Assembly (NCBI RefSeq): GCF_003945235.1 | Contig: NZ_RSDW01000001.1 | Coordinates: 60,001 to 92,000, forward strand | Direction of reading: 5' to 3' | Length of the DNA: 32,000 nt | Origin: Edaphobacter aggregans | GTDB lineage: Bacteria > Acidobacteriota > Terriglobia > Terriglobales > Acidobacteriaceae | Part shown: piece by piece, positions 25,789 through 32,000 of the stretch | Position numbering within the stretch: position 1 is the stretch's first letter | Layout: every line of letters begins with the position of its first letter | Translations under genes and position numbers: made by a program | The notes under the pieces: generated by a model | What the model was told of the DNA's origin: nothing | The model's database searches: none | What the model saw: the letters and a program-made list of their open reading frames with translations, nothing else

Positions 25789-27297
25789 ATGCCAGTTACG
25801 CCAACCTATCCTGGTGTTTACATTGAGGAGCTTCCCAGCGGAGTCCACACTATCACCGGCGTGGCAACCTCCATCGCGGCCTTCGTCGGCTGGGCTCCCC
25901 AGGGGCCAACCACAGAAGCCACCCTCATTCTCAGCTGGGCAGACTTCCAGAGGCAGTTTGGCGGTCTCGATTCGCGTAGTCTACTCGGCTACTCCGTCAA
26001 TCAGTTCTTCCTCAACGGCGGCCAGCAGGCCTACATCGTCCGCCTGGTCGATGGCACTGCCAAAACTGCCACGGTAACGATCGGCGCGGCCCCGAAATCG
26101 CTGATCGTCACTGCCCTGAACGCTGGGGCCTGGGCTAACGTCTACCAGGTCGCGATCAAGAACTCAACCGCATCTCCCGGACGTTTCCAGCTTCAGGTGA
26201 TCTATGCGCCAACCGGCGCAACCCCGGCGGTGGTCGAATCTTTCCCTAACCTCAGCATCACCACGCCTGACCCGCTGGGACGCTACGTTGTGGATGTCTT
26301 AGCCAACGGCTCGAACTACGTCACGGCCTCCGTGCCAGCCGGAACAACGGATCCGCCTACCGACACAACCGTGGCGCTCGACAACACCACTGCAGGCGAC
26401 GATGGCACCGTTCTTAACCCCAGCACAGCGGGATTTGAACTTGCCTTGCAAGCCGGGGGGGGCACCGCCGGCGTAAACCTGCTAGCCAATGTCGATCTAT
26501 TCAATCTCCTGTGCATTCCGGGGGAGACCACCAGCGTCGTCCTCGGCGAACTCGATACCTTCTGCAAAAATAATCAGGCCTTTCTTATTGCCGACCCCGA
26601 CCCCCTCATCACCAACTACGCGACACTCACCACCGGTCCCGGCTTTATCGGCAACAACTCCGCGTTCTACTTCCCCTCGCTGCTGGCACCTGACCCACTG
26701 GCCGGCAACGTCACGCGCACCTACCCGCCCTGCGGCTTCGTCGCCGGCATCTACGCCTCGACCGACGTCAATCGTGGTGTCTGGAAGGCGCCGGCCGGTA
26801 CAGAAACTGCCCTGGTTGGGGTCAGCGGCGTTGCTGTCCCGCTGACCGACAAACAAAACGGCGAGCTCAACCCTGTAGCCGTCAACTGCATCCGCTCCTT
26901 CAGTGCCTACGGCACGGTTGTTTGGGGCGCGCGCACCACCGGCGGCAACGACGAAGCAGGCTCGCAGTGGAAGTACGTCCCCATCCGGCGTCTTGCCCTC
27001 TTCCTCGAAACCAGCCTCTACCGCGGCACGCAATGGGTTGTCTTCGAGCCCAACGATGCTCCGCTCTGGGGCCAGATCCGCCTCAACGTCGGCTCCTTCA
27101 TGCAGACGCTCTTCACCCAGGGCGCCTTCCAGGGCTCCACGCCGCAGCAGGCTTACTTCGTCAAATGCGACAGCGAAACGACCACGCCCACCGATCAGGA
27201 CAACGGCATCGTCAACATTCTGGTCGGCTTCGCCCCACTCAAGCCCGCAGAATTCGTCATCATCCAGATCCAGCAGATCGCTGGGCAGACCACCTAA
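25789..27297 (+). CDS. contractile tail sheath protein (eCIS / phage tail sheath family)
   Basis: GGAGAG SD 7 nt upstream. MPVTPTYPGVYIEELPSG....GVATSIAAFVG is the hallmark sheath N-terminus. The C-terminal block GVWKAPAG...VNCIR.F..YG.VVWGARTT......WKYVPIRRL is the conserved sheath C-terminal domain. 502 aa. Confidence 0.93.
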   Translation: MPVTPTYPGVYIEELPSGVHTITGVATSIAAFVGWAPQGPTTEATLILSWADFQRQFGGLDSRSLLGYSVNQFFLNGGQQAYIVRLVDGTAKTATVTIGAAPKSLIVTALNAGAWANVYQVAIKNSTASPGRFQLQVIYAPTGATPAVVESFPNLSITTPDPLGRYVVDVLANGSNYVTASVPAGTTDPPTDTTVALDNTTAGDDGTVLNPSTAGFELALQAGGGTAGVNLLANVDLFNLLCIPGETTSVVLGELDTFCKNNQAFLIADPDPLITNYATLTTGPGFIGNNSAFYFPSLLAPDPLAGNVTRTYPPCGFVAGIYASTDVNRGVWKAPAGTETALVGVSGVAVPLTDKQNGELNPVAVNCIRSFSAYGTVVWGARTTGGNDEAGSQWKYVPIRRLALFLETSLYRGTQWVVFEPNDAPLWGQIRLNVGSFMQTLFTQGAFQGSTPQQAYFVKCDSETTTPTDQDNGIVNILVGFAPLKPAEFVIIQIQQIAGQTT

Positions 27298-27308
27298 GGA
27301 GAGCATAG

Positions 27309-29304: not shown

Positions 29305-30500
29305 GCAACTACCTCGCGATCGCCACCGTCACCGCCTCGCTCCAGCAAGTGCTGATGACGCCGGTGGGCAACGCCGTCGTCGGCGCCAAGGTCGGCTTCA
29401 GCCGCCCCGACGCGAGCAGTTCAACCACGCCGCTGGTCAACATCTTTCTCTACCAGATCACGCCCAACGCCGCCTACCGCAACGCCGACCTCCCCACGCG
29501 ACGCTCCGATGGCTCCCTCGCGCAGCGCCCCACCGCTGCCTTCGATCTCCACTACATCTTCACCTTCCACGGCGATGACACCAAGCTCGAACCGCAACGC
29601 CTGCTGGGCGCCGTCGCCACCACACTCCATGCCCAGCCGCTGCTCTCGGCCGATAACATCAGCAACGCGGCGTCTTCCTTTGGTTTCCTCGCCGGCTCCG
29701 GGCTCGACAGCCAGATTGAGCGTGTGCGCTTCACCCCCACCGGGCTCTCGCTCGAAGAGTTTTCCAAGCTCTGGTCGGTCTTCTTCCAGGTCGAGTACAG
29801 CCTCTCCGCCGCCTATCAGGCCTCGCTCGTGCTCATGGAATCCGACGACACACCCGTGCCTGCTCCGCCAGTCCTGCAGCGCAACCTTTACGTTGTGCCG
29901 TTTGAGACACCCTACGTCAGCCAGGTCATCTCTCAGGACGCCAAGCCCATCACCTCCACGTCCACCATCCTCATCCAGGGCACGCATCTCAGAAGCCCCA
30001 ATTCCTTCATCCTGATCGAAGACCAGGAACTTACCCCCGCCACTTCCTCCGACACACAAATCAGCCTTGCCCTGACCTCTGCTCTTCACGCCGGCGTCAA
30101 GAGCCTGCAGATTCTCCAGAATATGGACATGGGTACGCCCGCCGCGGCGCACCGCGGCTTCGAGTCCAACGTCGCCTCCTTCGTGCTGTGCCCCACGGTA
30201 TCCAGCGCCACCGGCGCCCCCGCCGTCAGCGGCACCGACGTCACCGTCAACCTCGTCCCCAACATAGGCATCGGCCAGAGGGCTGTGCTCCTGCTCAACA
30301 ACGTCACCTTGACTCCGCCCACGGCCTACGCCTCCACCGGCGTTGTCTCCACTGCCGACGCCCCTTCGATCGTCATCAACATCGCCAACGTCCCCACCGG
30401 CACCTACCTCGTCCGCGTGCAGGTCGATGGCGCCGAAAGCCAGCTGACCTTCAACGCCGTCACGCACGTCCTTGAAGGCCCCACGGTGGCCATGCCATGA
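29301..30500 (+). CDS. DUF4255 (Pvc16/Afp16 N-terminal-like) tail cap/terminator-like protein with an extended beta-rich C-terminal region
   Basis: MSNYLAIATVTASLQQVL......V.......P.......LVNIFLYQITPNAAYRNADLP...FDLHYIFTF...LLGAV is the DUF4255 pattern. Residues ~200-399 form two Ig-like-looking segments (ILIQGTHLRSPNSFILIEDQELTP...; VTVNLVPNIGIGQRAVLLLNNVTL...TGTYLVRVQVDGAES). Confidence 0.85.
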   Translation: MSNYLAIATVTASLQQVLMTPVGNAVVGAKVGFSRPDASSSTTPLVNIFLYQITPNAAYRNADLPTRRSDGSLAQRPTAAFDLHYIFTFHGDDTKLEPQRLLGAVATTLHAQPLLSADNISNAASSFGFLAGSGLDSQIERVRFTPTGLSLEEFSKLWSVFFQVEYSLSAAYQASLVLMESDDTPVPAPPVLQRNLYVVPFETPYVSQVISQDAKPITSTSTILIQGTHLRSPNSFILIEDQELTPATSSDTQISLALTSALHAGVKSLQILQNMDMGTPAAAHRGFESNVASFVLCPTVSSATGAPAVSGTDVTVNLVPNIGIGQRAVLLLNNVTLTPPTAYASTGVVSTADAPSIVINIANVPTGTYLVRVQVDGAESQLTFNAVTHVLEGPTVAMP

Positions 30501-32000
30501 GTGCACACATCATGACCGACGAAACGAGCGAAGAAAACATCATGGGCGGGGAAACCATGTCCGACAGTGCATCCGGCGCCAACGGAAGCCTCACCTGGTT
30601 CGAGGCGAATCAGCGCTACCTCGCCGCCGCTCTATCCGCACTCCGCGTCCATCTCCAGGCCACGCTGCGCAGAGCAGATGACTCAGCCTGCGAGCCCGGC
30701 ACGCAGGCCGAAGACGCTCTCCTCGATCCAGGCGCCTGGACCTTTTCGCAACCTCCCGCGCTAGAGCAACTCTGCTCCGCATTCGAACTCTCCGCCTTTG
30801 AGCGCGGCGTCTTACTCCTCGCCGCTGGCGCCGAGATGGACTCACGACTCGCTGAACTGTACGCCTCGCTCGGCCCCAACCCCCGCTTCTTACCCACCCT
30901 CAATCTCGCCCTCACCACCCTTCCCGAAGCGCACTGGAGCGCTCTTTCGCCCTCGCGGGCGTTGCGTCGCTGGCAACTCATCGACATTCTTCCCGCCGAC
31001 ACGCTCATCGCATCCGCTTTCCGACCCAACGAGCGTATCCTGCATTTCCTCGCCGGGGTCTCCGGCATCGACGAACGCCTCCATCACCTCGTTCGGCCGG
31101 TATCTCCGCCGGACGCGCTGCCGCTCTCCTACGCTGACCTCGCCAGCCAGGTCGCAGCCGTCTGGACCGACGCCTCGCGCCACTCGGCCGCATCTTCCAT
31201 GGCCCCGCAACTTCCGCTCATCGAACTCTGCGGCGCCGAGCCCGACGCAAACCGCGCCATCGCCGCCGGGGCTGCCGCGACACTCAACCTTCGCCTCTAT
31301 GTACTCTCGCCCCGCAACCTTCCGCAGACCTCCAGCGCCGAAACGGATCTCCTCCTACGCCTCTGGGAACGCGAAGCCGTCCTCAGCGGGACCGCTCTTC
31401 TGTTCGAATCCGAAGACCTGCCCACTGCCGACACCACTTCAGCTACACTCGCGCTCCTGCTCGAATCCCTTCGAGCTCCGCTCATCCTCTCCTCGCGGCA
31501 GCCACATCCTACGCTCAGCCGTCCGCGCGTGGTCTTCTATACCTCCAGGCCAACGCGCGCGGAGCAGGCTGAGCTCTGGCGAACATCGTTGCAGTCCCCA
31601 CACGATGAAGCAAACGAAACCCTTGTAGACACGCTGGTAGCCCAGTTCAATCTCGCTCCCGTCGCCATTCGCTCCGCCGCACAGCGTGCCAGCGGAACCG
31701 CCCATCACACCGAATCACTACACTCCCTCACGCCCGTGCTCTGGGAAGCCTGCCGCATCGAAGCCCGTCCGCGCCTTGAAGGCCTCGCGCAGCGTATCGA
31801 GGCGACCGCCACCTGGAACGACCTCGTACTGCCTGATAAAGAGCGCGAGCATCTGAGGCAAATTTCCCTGCATGTTCGCCAGCGCACTCGCGTATACGAA
31901 GGCTGGGGCTTCGCCGACCGCAGCTCGCGCGGCCTCGGCATCAGCGCTCTTTTCGCCGGCCCCAGCGGCACTGGCAAAACCACCGCAGCGGAAGTGCTTG
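30497..32000 (+). CDS. eCIS-type AAA+ ATPase (Afp15-like), 3'-partial at window edge
   Basis: Not in the ORF track because there is no stop in the window. In my own translation from ATG 30497 (ATGA overlap with the DUF4255 stop) the frame stays open to 32000: MSAHIMTDETSEEN...LTWFEANQRYLAAALSALRVHLQ...ERGVLLLAAGAEMD...LSPSRALRRWQLI... It ends in ...WGFADRSSRGLGISALFAGPSGTGKTTAAEVL (Walker A). Confidence 0.88.
   Translation, partial: MSAHIMTDETSEENIMGGETMSDSASGANGSLTWFEANQRYLAAALSALRVHLQATLRRADDSACEPGTQAEDALLDPGAWTFSQPPALEQLCSAFELSAFERGVLLLAAGAEMDSRLAELYASLGPNPRFLPTLNLALTTLPEAHWSALSPSRALRRWQLIDILPADTLIASAFRPNERILHFLAGVSGIDERLHHLVRPVSPPDALPLSYADLASQVAAVWTDASRHSAASSMAPQLPLIELCGAEPDANRAIAAGAAATLNLRLYVLSPRNLPQTSSAETDLLLRLWEREAVLSGTALLFESEDLPTADTTSATLALLLESLRAPLILSSRQPHPTLSRPRVVFYTSRPTRAEQAELWRTSLQSPHDEANETLVDTLVAQFNLAPVAIRSAAQRASGTAHHTESLHSLTPVLWEACRIEARPRLEGLAQRIEATATWNDLVLPDKEREHLRQISLHVRQRTRVYEGWGFADRSSRGLGISALFAGPSGTGKTTAAEVL

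Follow-up and report, generated by a model that had tools for sequence, protein, structure and literature searches.

Regulatory head and 5' module of a probable Afp/PVC-like lineage II contractile injection system in an Acidobacteriaceae chromosome

The 32,000-nt stretch of DNA analyzed here (the window; positions 60,001 to 92,000 of Edaphobacter aggregans contig NZ_RSDW01000001.1) very probably carries, at 23989-32000, the regulatory head, followed by the 5' genes for structure and assembly, of a contractile injection system (CIS) that belongs to lineage II of the group resembling the antifeeding prophage (Afp) as well as the Photorhabdus virulence cassette (PVC), in an Acidobacteriaceae chromosome. 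We assign it to the Afp/PVC-like group because its cap protein has no phage matches, its sheath is nearer to CIS sheaths than to phage sheaths, and baseplate genes follow downstream in related contigs. Window coordinates run from 1 to 32000, and the related loci compared with the window are designated by L numbers (L001 etc.). An earlier note, made from the letters of the sequence, had described a six-gene unit starting at 25789 in an Acidobacteria-like chromosome. This start has to be moved, as the unit begins ~1.8 kb earlier, where a gene for a sigma-54 activator, a candidate promoter and a small gene are found. The assignment to Acidobacteria agrees with the origin of the related genome loci, three of four being metagenome-assembled genomes (MAGs) of Acidobacteriaceae/Acidobacteriales and one being labeled Rhodanobacteraceae.

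The six-gene structural and assembly module

Six open reading frames (ORFs) on the forward strand lie where the earlier note had placed them, and their spacing, with gaps of 11 and 11 nt followed by overlaps of 16, 4 and 4 nt, was reproduced. The succession proposed there (sheath, tube, CxxC protein, Pro-rich protein, DUF4255 protein, AAA+ ATPase) agrees with profile searches as well as with motifs and composition. Judged by its recurrence in related loci, this six-gene order is far beyond chance.

The first gene (25789-27297, 502 aa) encodes the sheath (equivalent of Afp2-4 and Cis2), which is matched by PF04984 (3.8e-11) and PF17482 (9e-11), both above the cut-off, and by phrog_23 (4.8e-59). 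Its best matches in the PDB are the haloarchaeal Cis2 9ezm (2.7e-72) and the Streptomyces CIS structures 8bky (3.3e-72) and 8bl4 (~2e-70), followed by Pvc2 (8e-50) and Afp3 (2.6e-43); the solved CIS sheaths span 2.7e-72 to 3e-41, compared with 5e-10 for T4 gp18. Among 50,697 phage records, tblastn with the sheath gave 1200 matches, the best of them at 35% identity. The second gene (27309-27836, 175 aa) encodes an inner tube protein of the gp19 type (equivalent of Afp1/5 and Cis1), assigned by PF06841 (1.7e-44) and TIGR02241 (1.8e-41); the CIS1/CIS5 NCBIfam models stayed below their cut-off. The tube protein is 88-91% identical across L001-L004.

The cap, or tail terminator (equivalent of Afp16, Pvc16 and Cis16), is encoded by the fifth gene (29301-30500, 399 aa). 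Its identification as a DUF4255 protein in the earlier note was borne out: PF14065 (Pvc16_N) matches with 2.8e-43 over 179 of 180 model positions, and tblastn found no match to the protein in the 50,697 phage records. The Pvc16_N domain occupies residues 9-192 and is followed by a C-terminal extension of ~200 residues; the L003 orthologue shows a weak IPT/TIG match. An exact-sequence look-up of the cap protein returned no record. Full-length homologues adjoin an ATPase in Streptomyces, Ensifer, Novosphingobium and cyanobacteria. In L001, the cap gene aligns as three pieces in different frames (8790-9089, 9091-9906 and 9908-9985), which suggests two single-base indels in this MAG, i.e., assembly errors or a pseudogene.

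The window ends within the sixth gene (30497-32000, 501 codons without a stop), encoding the N-terminal part of a CIS AAA ATPase (Afp15/Pvc15 equivalent). It overlaps the cap gene by 4 nt, and in every relative the ATPase gene is translationally coupled to that of the cap. The 501 residues contain a PF22977 WHD match (8e-15). Residues 487-494 form a Walker A motif, GPSGTGKT, close to where it lies in the D2 domain of Pvc15 (499-502; PMC11495950). A PDB search identified the protein as an AAA ATPase of the Cdc48/p97 type. The AAA domain itself is encoded past the window end: L005 and L093 (97-98% identical) have a PF00004 match, and L003 has one with 5e-27. The complete enzyme has 690-695 aa in the near-identical contigs, with 695 aa in L093 (98% identical).

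Two results weigh against the equivalence of the cap and the ATPase with their Afp and PVC counterparts. The cap found no match to solved caps in the PDB, either as a single sequence or as a 7-sequence profile, and the ATPase N-domain has neither pairwise nor profile similarity to Afp15/Pvc15. Of what the earlier note had said of the 30497 protein, an AAA ATPase coupled to the cap gene is present; direct similarity of its N-domain to Afp15/Pvc15 was not detectable by BLAST. BLAST with the N-domain matched just lineage-II-type ATPases and showed no similarity of it or of the cap to the Serratia and Photorhabdus proteins; tblastn of both against plasmids did not reach Serratia Afp15/16 and Photorhabdus Pvc15/16.

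Two further genes are inserted between those for tube and cap. The first of them (27848-28594, 248 aa) encodes a four-cysteine protein resembling T4 gp51 and gp26. PF12322 (T4_baseplate) matches it with 1.1e-5, just above the curated cut-off, and its counterpart in L003 with 1.9e-10; the PF12322-like proteins of L010 and L011 are 41-43% identical. The AlphaFold2 model of the protein has a predicted local distance difference test score (pLDDT) of 90.8, and a fold search in BFVD retrieved models of 'baseplate hub assembly protein/catalyst' and of gp26 (E 4e-8, template modeling score (TM) 0.5-0.6). The likeness to T4 gp51 and gp26 thus consists of the Pfam match above cut-off and the predicted fold, whereas sequence identity is just 9-19%. 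A fold search against the PDB, solved CIS particles included, gave no match (best E 0.57, TM 0.2), nor did a PDB search with the sequence; a literature search on PF12322 found nothing. The motifs C71-P-x-C74 and C183-x-x-C186 are invariant among 43 homologues, and the four invariant cysteines suggest a putative zinc site. Owing to the fold match to hub assembly proteins and the known role of T4 gp51, the protein is probably a zinc-binding assembly factor that would be absent from the finished particle, like T4 gp51.

The best phage match to the sheath is a protein of Bacillus phage BCD7 (JN712910.1, 63596-64999; 34.6% identity, 1e-60), and in the fold search with the gp51-like protein a BCD7 protein (BFVD J9PUD8) is one of the top matches (TM 0.60). 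As the same phage tops the sheath search and ranks high for the gp51-like fold, there is a hint of an ancestry common to a BCD7-like myovirus and the sheath and gp51-like protein, perhaps along with the intervening tube gene.

The second inserted gene (28579-29304, 241 aa) encodes a protein with 49 prolines among its 241 residues (20.3%), recognized by alignment and with only a putative role. Its N-terminus (MADFLNRLAARALG..PLAEP) and C-terminus (VRVSIGRIEVRAE...LSLxQFLKQ) are kept in the alignment, and the variable middle is probably disordered. A set of 182 representative homologues, of 45-465 aa (most of them ~200-465 aa), match at both ends, and the gene at the same position in Streptomyces encodes 479 aa. 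No Pfam, PHROG or PDB match was found for the protein, the PDB having been searched with the profile. Lineage II has no recognized tape measure (PMC6899500), and Streptomyces particles are of uniform length though no tape-measure gene is annotated (PMC12237407). Because of these two observations and of the conserved ends with a variable middle, one may speculate that the Pro-rich protein is a candidate length determinant of lineage II. The known tape measures are helical, however, and a proline-rich chain is unlike them, which counts against this idea.

The order of genes for sheath, tube, PF12322-like protein, variable protein, Pvc16_N cap and WHD-AAA ATPase recurs in L001-L004, L010, L011 and L092, and also in 80 metagenome loci, whose sheaths are 44-76% identical, in every case where the contig reaches far enough. 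These six genes form the 5' module on a Streptomyces europaeiscabiei plasmid as well, where the baseplate module is inverted and the regulator is of the BTAD type; the match in an Oscillatoria plasmid has a scattered arrangement disrupted by insertion sequences and is uninformative for gene order. According to Sarris et al. 2014, the ATPase is arranged head-to-tail with DUF4255, and its placement versus the baseplate genes is variable (PMC4122934). The gene order was rightly said to differ from that of Afp/PVC, but it is not unusual, as a widespread subtype of lineage II has it as its standard arrangement. Afp of Serratia entomophila and PVC of Photorhabdus (lineage Ia) have in common with the present system the sheath, tube, cap, AAA ATPase, baseplate, spike and fibers, and an ATPase Walker A motif near residue 490-500; the Pvc16_N family is named after Pvc16. 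They differ in having the cap and ATPase genes at the 3' end, three sheath paralogues and the tape measure Afp14, whereas here a single sheath gene is present, the cap and ATPase genes come after the tube, and the gp51-like and Pro-rich genes are inserted.

The sigma-54 activator, candidate promoter and small gene upstream

The unit starts with a gene for a sigma-54 activator, i.e., a bacterial enhancer-binding protein (bEBP), at 23989-25026 on the forward strand (345 aa; PF00158 with 1.2e-57, PF25601, PF02954). Its AAA+ core begins at about residue 25, no N-terminal sensor or receiver domain being present, and a Fis-type helix-turn-helix domain forms the C-terminus. The activator loop reads GAFSGA, as it does in L001, L003 and L004 (in L002 the loop is outside the match). 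The protein is 80-84% identical and its gene syntenic in L001, L003 and L004, and this gene is the left edge of conservation between the window and L001-L004. About 80 nt past its stop codon lie overlapping inverted repeats, TGCAG-N4-CTGCA-N6-TGCAG (25103-25128, forward strand), which are the sole invariant blocks of an otherwise poorly conserved stretch in the four-locus alignment and from which we infer a candidate upstream activating sequence, i.e., a site for binding of the activator.

A candidate sigma-54 (-24/-12) promoter, TGGGCTCTCCCGTGCA, is located at 25388-25403 on the forward strand, 401 nt before the sheath ATG. Its GG-N10-GC core is found at the corresponding position in the window, L001, L003 and L004. 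Of the metagenome loci, 42 extend upstream by 2.3 kb or more, and 16 of these (~38%) possess a same-strand bEBP gene. Here, as in the window, sites were sought by a scan requiring the GG-N10-GC core. The best -24/-12 score averaged 8.69 of 11 in the 16 more distant bEBP-linked loci, compared with 5.75 for the reverse-strand control and 6.81 for loci that lack a bEBP. Across the 42 loci, strong sites thus occur preferentially in those that bear a bEBP, and in the bEBP-linked loci most of the best sites (e.g., TGGCACGGGCATTGCT) are found 300-440 nt before the sheath gene. No sigma-70-like site was found between the bEBP and sheath genes.

Given the conserved sequence and the co-occurrence of activator and promoter, the cluster appears to be switched on by the adjacent sigma-54 activator. 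Three observations speak against such control. The -24/-12 site of the window is weak, agreeing with the consensus at 7 of 11 positions, and the strict consensus search (at most 2 mismatches) found nothing in the intergenic region. Furthermore, the Walker B motif of the activator reads 'LFLDDV', with DD for the usual DE, and this DD is kept in L001-L004; it might impair ATP hydrolysis by the activator. More distant CIS-linked activators have 'LDE' in Walker B.

Between the candidate promoter and the sheath gene lies a small conserved gene (25431-25700, forward strand) for a protein of ~83-89 aa, starting with TTG at 25431 or GTG at 25449. Across L001, L003 and L004 it keeps 67-75% identity, with variation of the synonymous type, and it has no Pfam, PHROG or PDB match. 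Past the -24/-12 site, a small ORF (58-105 aa) always precedes the sheath gene, in the window as well as in 11 other loci (L014, L016, L030, L034, L035, L039, L049, L053, L059, L063 and L072). The small ORF of L014 is homologous to that of the window, and 10 other bEBP-linked loci have an unrelated small-ORF family at this position; the patterns of the families are 'V.F.V.DI.LP...FSD.G...FAV' and 'HP.AKDT.EGI..WWL'. The layout of activator, promoter and small gene is like that of pspF-PpspA-pspA.

Geller et al. stress GerE, BTAD and RfaH as extracellular contractile injection system (eCIS) regulators, and Sigma54_activat is just in a supplementary table, with 49 occurrences and an odds ratio of 1.59 (PMC8213781). 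Our literature search found no paper tying sigma-54 to contractile injection systems. Two leads for the whole subtype emerge from the locus, i.e., the sigma-54 link in ~38% (16/42) of the related loci and the candidate length determinant of lineage II.

Downstream genes in relatives, classification and mode of action

The part of the cluster beyond the window end can be read from related contigs. L005, L006 and L007 have 96.9% DNA identity to 23306-32000, and L093 is identical by 98.0%, gapless, over 26335-32000; these 97-98% identical contigs cover the genes up to the first baseplate gene (830 aa). In L005 and L093, the ATPase gene is followed by genes for proteins of 110, 200, 121, 378, 167 (Phage_base_V), 106, 121 (gp25) and 830 aa. 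A split Phage_GPD/Phage_base_V spike, gp25 and a CIS_tube-like adaptor accordingly follow the ATPase in the near-identical contigs and relatives, the adaptor assignment coming from the 200-aa gene, which is CIS_tube-like in L003. The 106-aa protein between spike and gp25 contains a C-x-HGG motif and has no Pfam or NCBIfam match.

Relatives with 77-86% protein identity (L003/L008 and GCA_015689235.1) extend further and contain a second large baseplate protein, so that two adjacent TIGR02243 proteins of 829/830 and 957/961 aa are present (1e-71 and 1.3e-62). After them come a protein of 768-770 aa and DUF6519, DUF6734 and DUF4157 (Pfam 'eCIS_core') proteins. The DUF6519 protein of the relatives has 816-823 aa, and this domain is eBAP5, the baseplate-anchoring domain of eCIS tail fibers (PMC12923769). 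DUF4157, a cargo-associated eCIS marker according to Geller et al. (PMC8213781), is encoded by genes flanking the cluster in L008 (702 and 443 aa), GCA_015689235.1 (617 aa), L010 and L092. The earlier prediction that spike, baseplate, fiber and payload genes lie past 32000 is in line with these contigs, all four being present there. Deviating positions of cargo-type genes were seen in more distant relatives: L010 has two DUF4157 proteins between the ATPase and the baseplate module (15132-17321) and not at the 3' end, and L011 has a Peptidase_C1 protein at the same place (11184-13197), with a GerE regulator upstream and not a sigma-54 activator.

Within lineage II, the system probably belongs to subtype IIa, as far as gene content can tell. 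Two Afp11-like genes and divergent Afp12/13 are the content of subtype IIa according to Chen et al. (PMC6899500). Both features are found in the relatives, the first as the two adjacent baseplate genes (which would fit IIc as well) and the second as the 768-770 aa and DUF6519 proteins; furthermore, the top solved sheath match, Halogeometricum Cis2, belongs to clade IIa. Subtype IIa also has a PAAR gene (afp10), the position of which is taken here by the gene for the 106-aa protein. With the lineage II loci of dbeCIS and eCIStem, the system shares the core of sheath, gp19 tube, DUF4255 cap, AAA ATPase, LysM/tube adaptor, VgrG-like spike, gp25 and baseplate J, and also the two Afp11-like genes, the lack of a recognizable Afp14, subtype-specific genes without known domains and the 3' DUF4157 cargo; it differs in the sigma-54 activator, in place of the GerE, BTAD and RfaH regulators highlighted there. 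The locus adds a member and not a kind. Hundreds to thousands of near-identical architectures are public (more than 599 sheath relatives in one metagenome scan, more than 4,000 baseplate homologues in a protein collection), homologous baseplate genes are carried by Silvibacterium acidisoli and a Dyella species, among others, and loci from Acidobacteria, e.g., Acidobacterium strain C40 and Acidobacteria bacterium Mor1, are already catalogued in dbeCIS/eCIStem (PMC6899500, PMC8213781).

A canonical type VI secretion system (T6SS) has several generic parts in common with this cluster, i.e., the VgrG-like spike, gp25/TssE, the protein at the PAAR position and an AAA ATPase, and sigma-54 activators regulate some T6SS clusters. 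However, the sheath is a single phage-type protein and not TssB/TssC, the tube is of the gp19 type and not Hcp, and Pfam scans of the cluster proteins revealed no TssB/TssC, Hcp, TssJLM, TssK, TssF/G or ClpV. The system has baseplate-J-like proteins as well as a DUF4255 cap, both of which are missing from the classical T6SS (PMC6899500). A canonical T6SS was rejected on these grounds and has a practically negligible probability.

On the assignment to the Afp/PVC-like group, the following working of the system can be proposed. The sensor-less activator would bind the palindromes past its own gene and open the -24/-12 promoter at 25388-25403, from which one long operon would be transcribed, encoding the small protein, sheath, tube, gp51-like factor, Pro-rich protein, cap and ATPase. 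It would continue with the tube adaptor, the split VgrG-like spike, the PAAR-position protein, gp25, two baseplate-J-like proteins, the 768-aa protein, the DUF6519 fiber and the DUF4157 cargo. Baseplate and spike would nucleate polymerization of tube and sheath, and the gp51-like zinc protein, if its fold and the role of T4 gp51 are a guide, would aid hub assembly and leave the particle. A cap hexamer, as established for Afp16, Pvc16 and Cis16, would end tube and sheath. The AAA ATPase would load cargo into the tube, a role established for Pvc15. The particle, assumed to be released from the cell, would then bind its target via the DUF6519 fiber, contract and inject DUF4157-tagged toxins.

Extracellular action seems to us somewhat more likely than not. 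Release and target binding are favored because the relatives possess a DUF6519 fiber gene and no transmembrane anchor is predicted; the fiber (DUF6519/eBAP5), a feature of released CIS, is seen in the relatives and not in the source strain, and the hydropathy scan, which found no transmembrane anchor in the cluster, is weak negative evidence on membrane anchoring. Several points tell against the working proposed above. The fiber and cargo genes are known from the 77-86% relatives and not from the source strain, the PAAR assignment of the 106-aa protein rests on position only, and the two best solved sheath matches come from membrane-bound and cytoplasmic systems, which makes release uncertain.

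The same genes could serve a system that does not act extracellularly, either a membrane-anchored, T6SS-like and contact-dependent one (as in Halogeometricum, IIa) or one for intracellular regulated cell death (as the Streptomyces CIS, IId). We consider this the less probable alternative, though one to be taken seriously. Cytoplasmic systems (Streptomyces) are also part of the Afp/PVC-like group, as are thylakoid-anchored ones and the membrane-bound, T6SS-like ones of haloarchaea (PMC11566945; PMC12237407). The DUF4255 and AAA ATPase pair, which had been put forward as the hallmark of eCIS, does mark the Afp/PVC-like phylogenetic group, but the locus is a reminder that it is no proof of extracellular action. 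The best solved sheaths are exactly those of Halogeometricum (9ezm, 2.7e-72) and Streptomyces (8bky, 3.3e-72), the sole characterized member of clade IIa is membrane-bound (PMC11566945), and no lysis cassette was found in 22-27 kb of the related loci. On the other hand, the relatives encode a DUF6519/eBAP5 tail-fiber protein after the baseplate, whereas the Streptomyces CIS has no fibers and has the membrane protein CisA at the fiber position, and no Hbor_38620- or CisA-like transmembrane protein was found in the cluster, within the 10-kb flanks examined.

The two systems deserve comparison. The CIS of Halogeometricum borinquense ('archaeal T6SS', 9ezm) is like the present one in giving the best sheath match, in having a sheath gene followed by a tube gene (Hbor_38820/38830) and two cis11 genes, and in lacking a recognized tape measure. 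It differs in its archaeal host and in its attachment to the cytoplasmic membrane, where it is associated with a membrane protein of six helices; no such protein was found in the present cluster. The DUF6519 fiber gene of the relatives is a further difference. CIS-Sc of Streptomyces coelicolor (IId; 8bky, 9gtp) has a near-equal sheath score, a single Cis16-type cap and no annotated tape measure, but it is cytoplasmic and fiberless, depends on CisA, a membrane protein, and possesses a single cis11 gene.

A broader reading joins several of these proposals: a dedicated sigma-54 circuit of activator, promoter and a small product feeding back as PspA does on PspF, a Pro-rich tape measure, its ends conserved and its middle ranging from ~200 to 480 residues, acting with a zinc-binding gp51-like hub-assembly catalyst, and a system that is perhaps not extracellular. 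Taken as a whole, we regard it as rather doubtful. Acidobacteria are plentiful in soil and difficult to grow in culture; a literature search found no experimental paper on their contractile injection systems.

Genomic context

The left boundary of DNA identity coincides with a tRNA-Ser(GGA) gene (23309-23396, reverse strand), as the ~97% identity to L005, L006 and L007 begins at 23306, just past the 3' end of the tRNA gene. An Rfam scan of 23000-26000 found the tRNA only. Between this gene and the activator, an ORF at 23444-23800 contains a relic of a second, divergent sheath gene (23570-23779, forward strand). Against the intact sheath, the relic aligns with residues 23-93 (51% identity, E 1e-18), and its identity to the N-termini of the L001-L004 sheaths is 46-52%; ~22 residues are missing at its start, as is everything past about residue 93. 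The region around the relic is ~97% identical at the DNA level in L005, L006 and L007, where an 89-aa ORF in antisense is among the called genes at this position. The GC content, in 1-kb windows, is ~0.56 at 1-23000 versus ~0.63 at 26000-32000. Taken together, the identity break at the tRNA edge, the sheath relic and the rise in GC content hint at past horizontal acquisition or replacement. No integrase is visible in the window. To the left of the tRNA gene lies a BatD-like gene in the window, whereas L005 has genes for HTH_17, primase-like CHC2 zinc-finger and RHS proteins at this side; the tRNA-Ser flank looks like an integration hotspot, and the left side of L005 like a mobile element.

Some features would suit a defective prophage tail module or an R-type tailocin, which would not inject cargo: a tRNA-Ser gene adjoins the cluster, its GC content is ~7 points above that of the upstream 23 kb, a sheath gene relic is its neighbor, and homologues of its sheath, tube and gp51-like proteins occur in phages (phrog_23, phrog_4542, BFVD). 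However, the Pvc16_N cap has no phage match and is accompanied by a dedicated AAA ATPase, and DUF4157 cargo genes flank the cluster in relatives. Head, packaging, integrase and lysis genes are lacking upstream as well as in the relatives, where no capsid, portal, terminase, integrase, holin or endolysin was found in ~14-22 kb past the window end. The earlier note had seen no capsid, portal, terminase or integrase gene on the upstream side, and none is indeed present among 15 large upstream ORFs; its downstream check, carried out on related contigs, revealed neither capsid/terminase nor TssB/C/ClpV/TssM genes. Because of the Pvc16_N cap, the AAA ATPase, the missing head and lysis genes and the DUF4157 cargo, the prophage or tailocin explanation was rejected, and we hold it to be very improbable.

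At 16927-23260 (forward strand) lies a Bat/MoxR-type operon encoding a MoxR AAA_3 ATPase and DUF58, VWA, VWA-TPR and BatD-like proteins, which has no counterpart in L001-L004. The 15 large upstream ORFs are chromosomal housekeeping genes, including pyrF, thiD, a glycosyltransferase, a sulfatase and this MoxR/DUF58/VWA/BatD operon.

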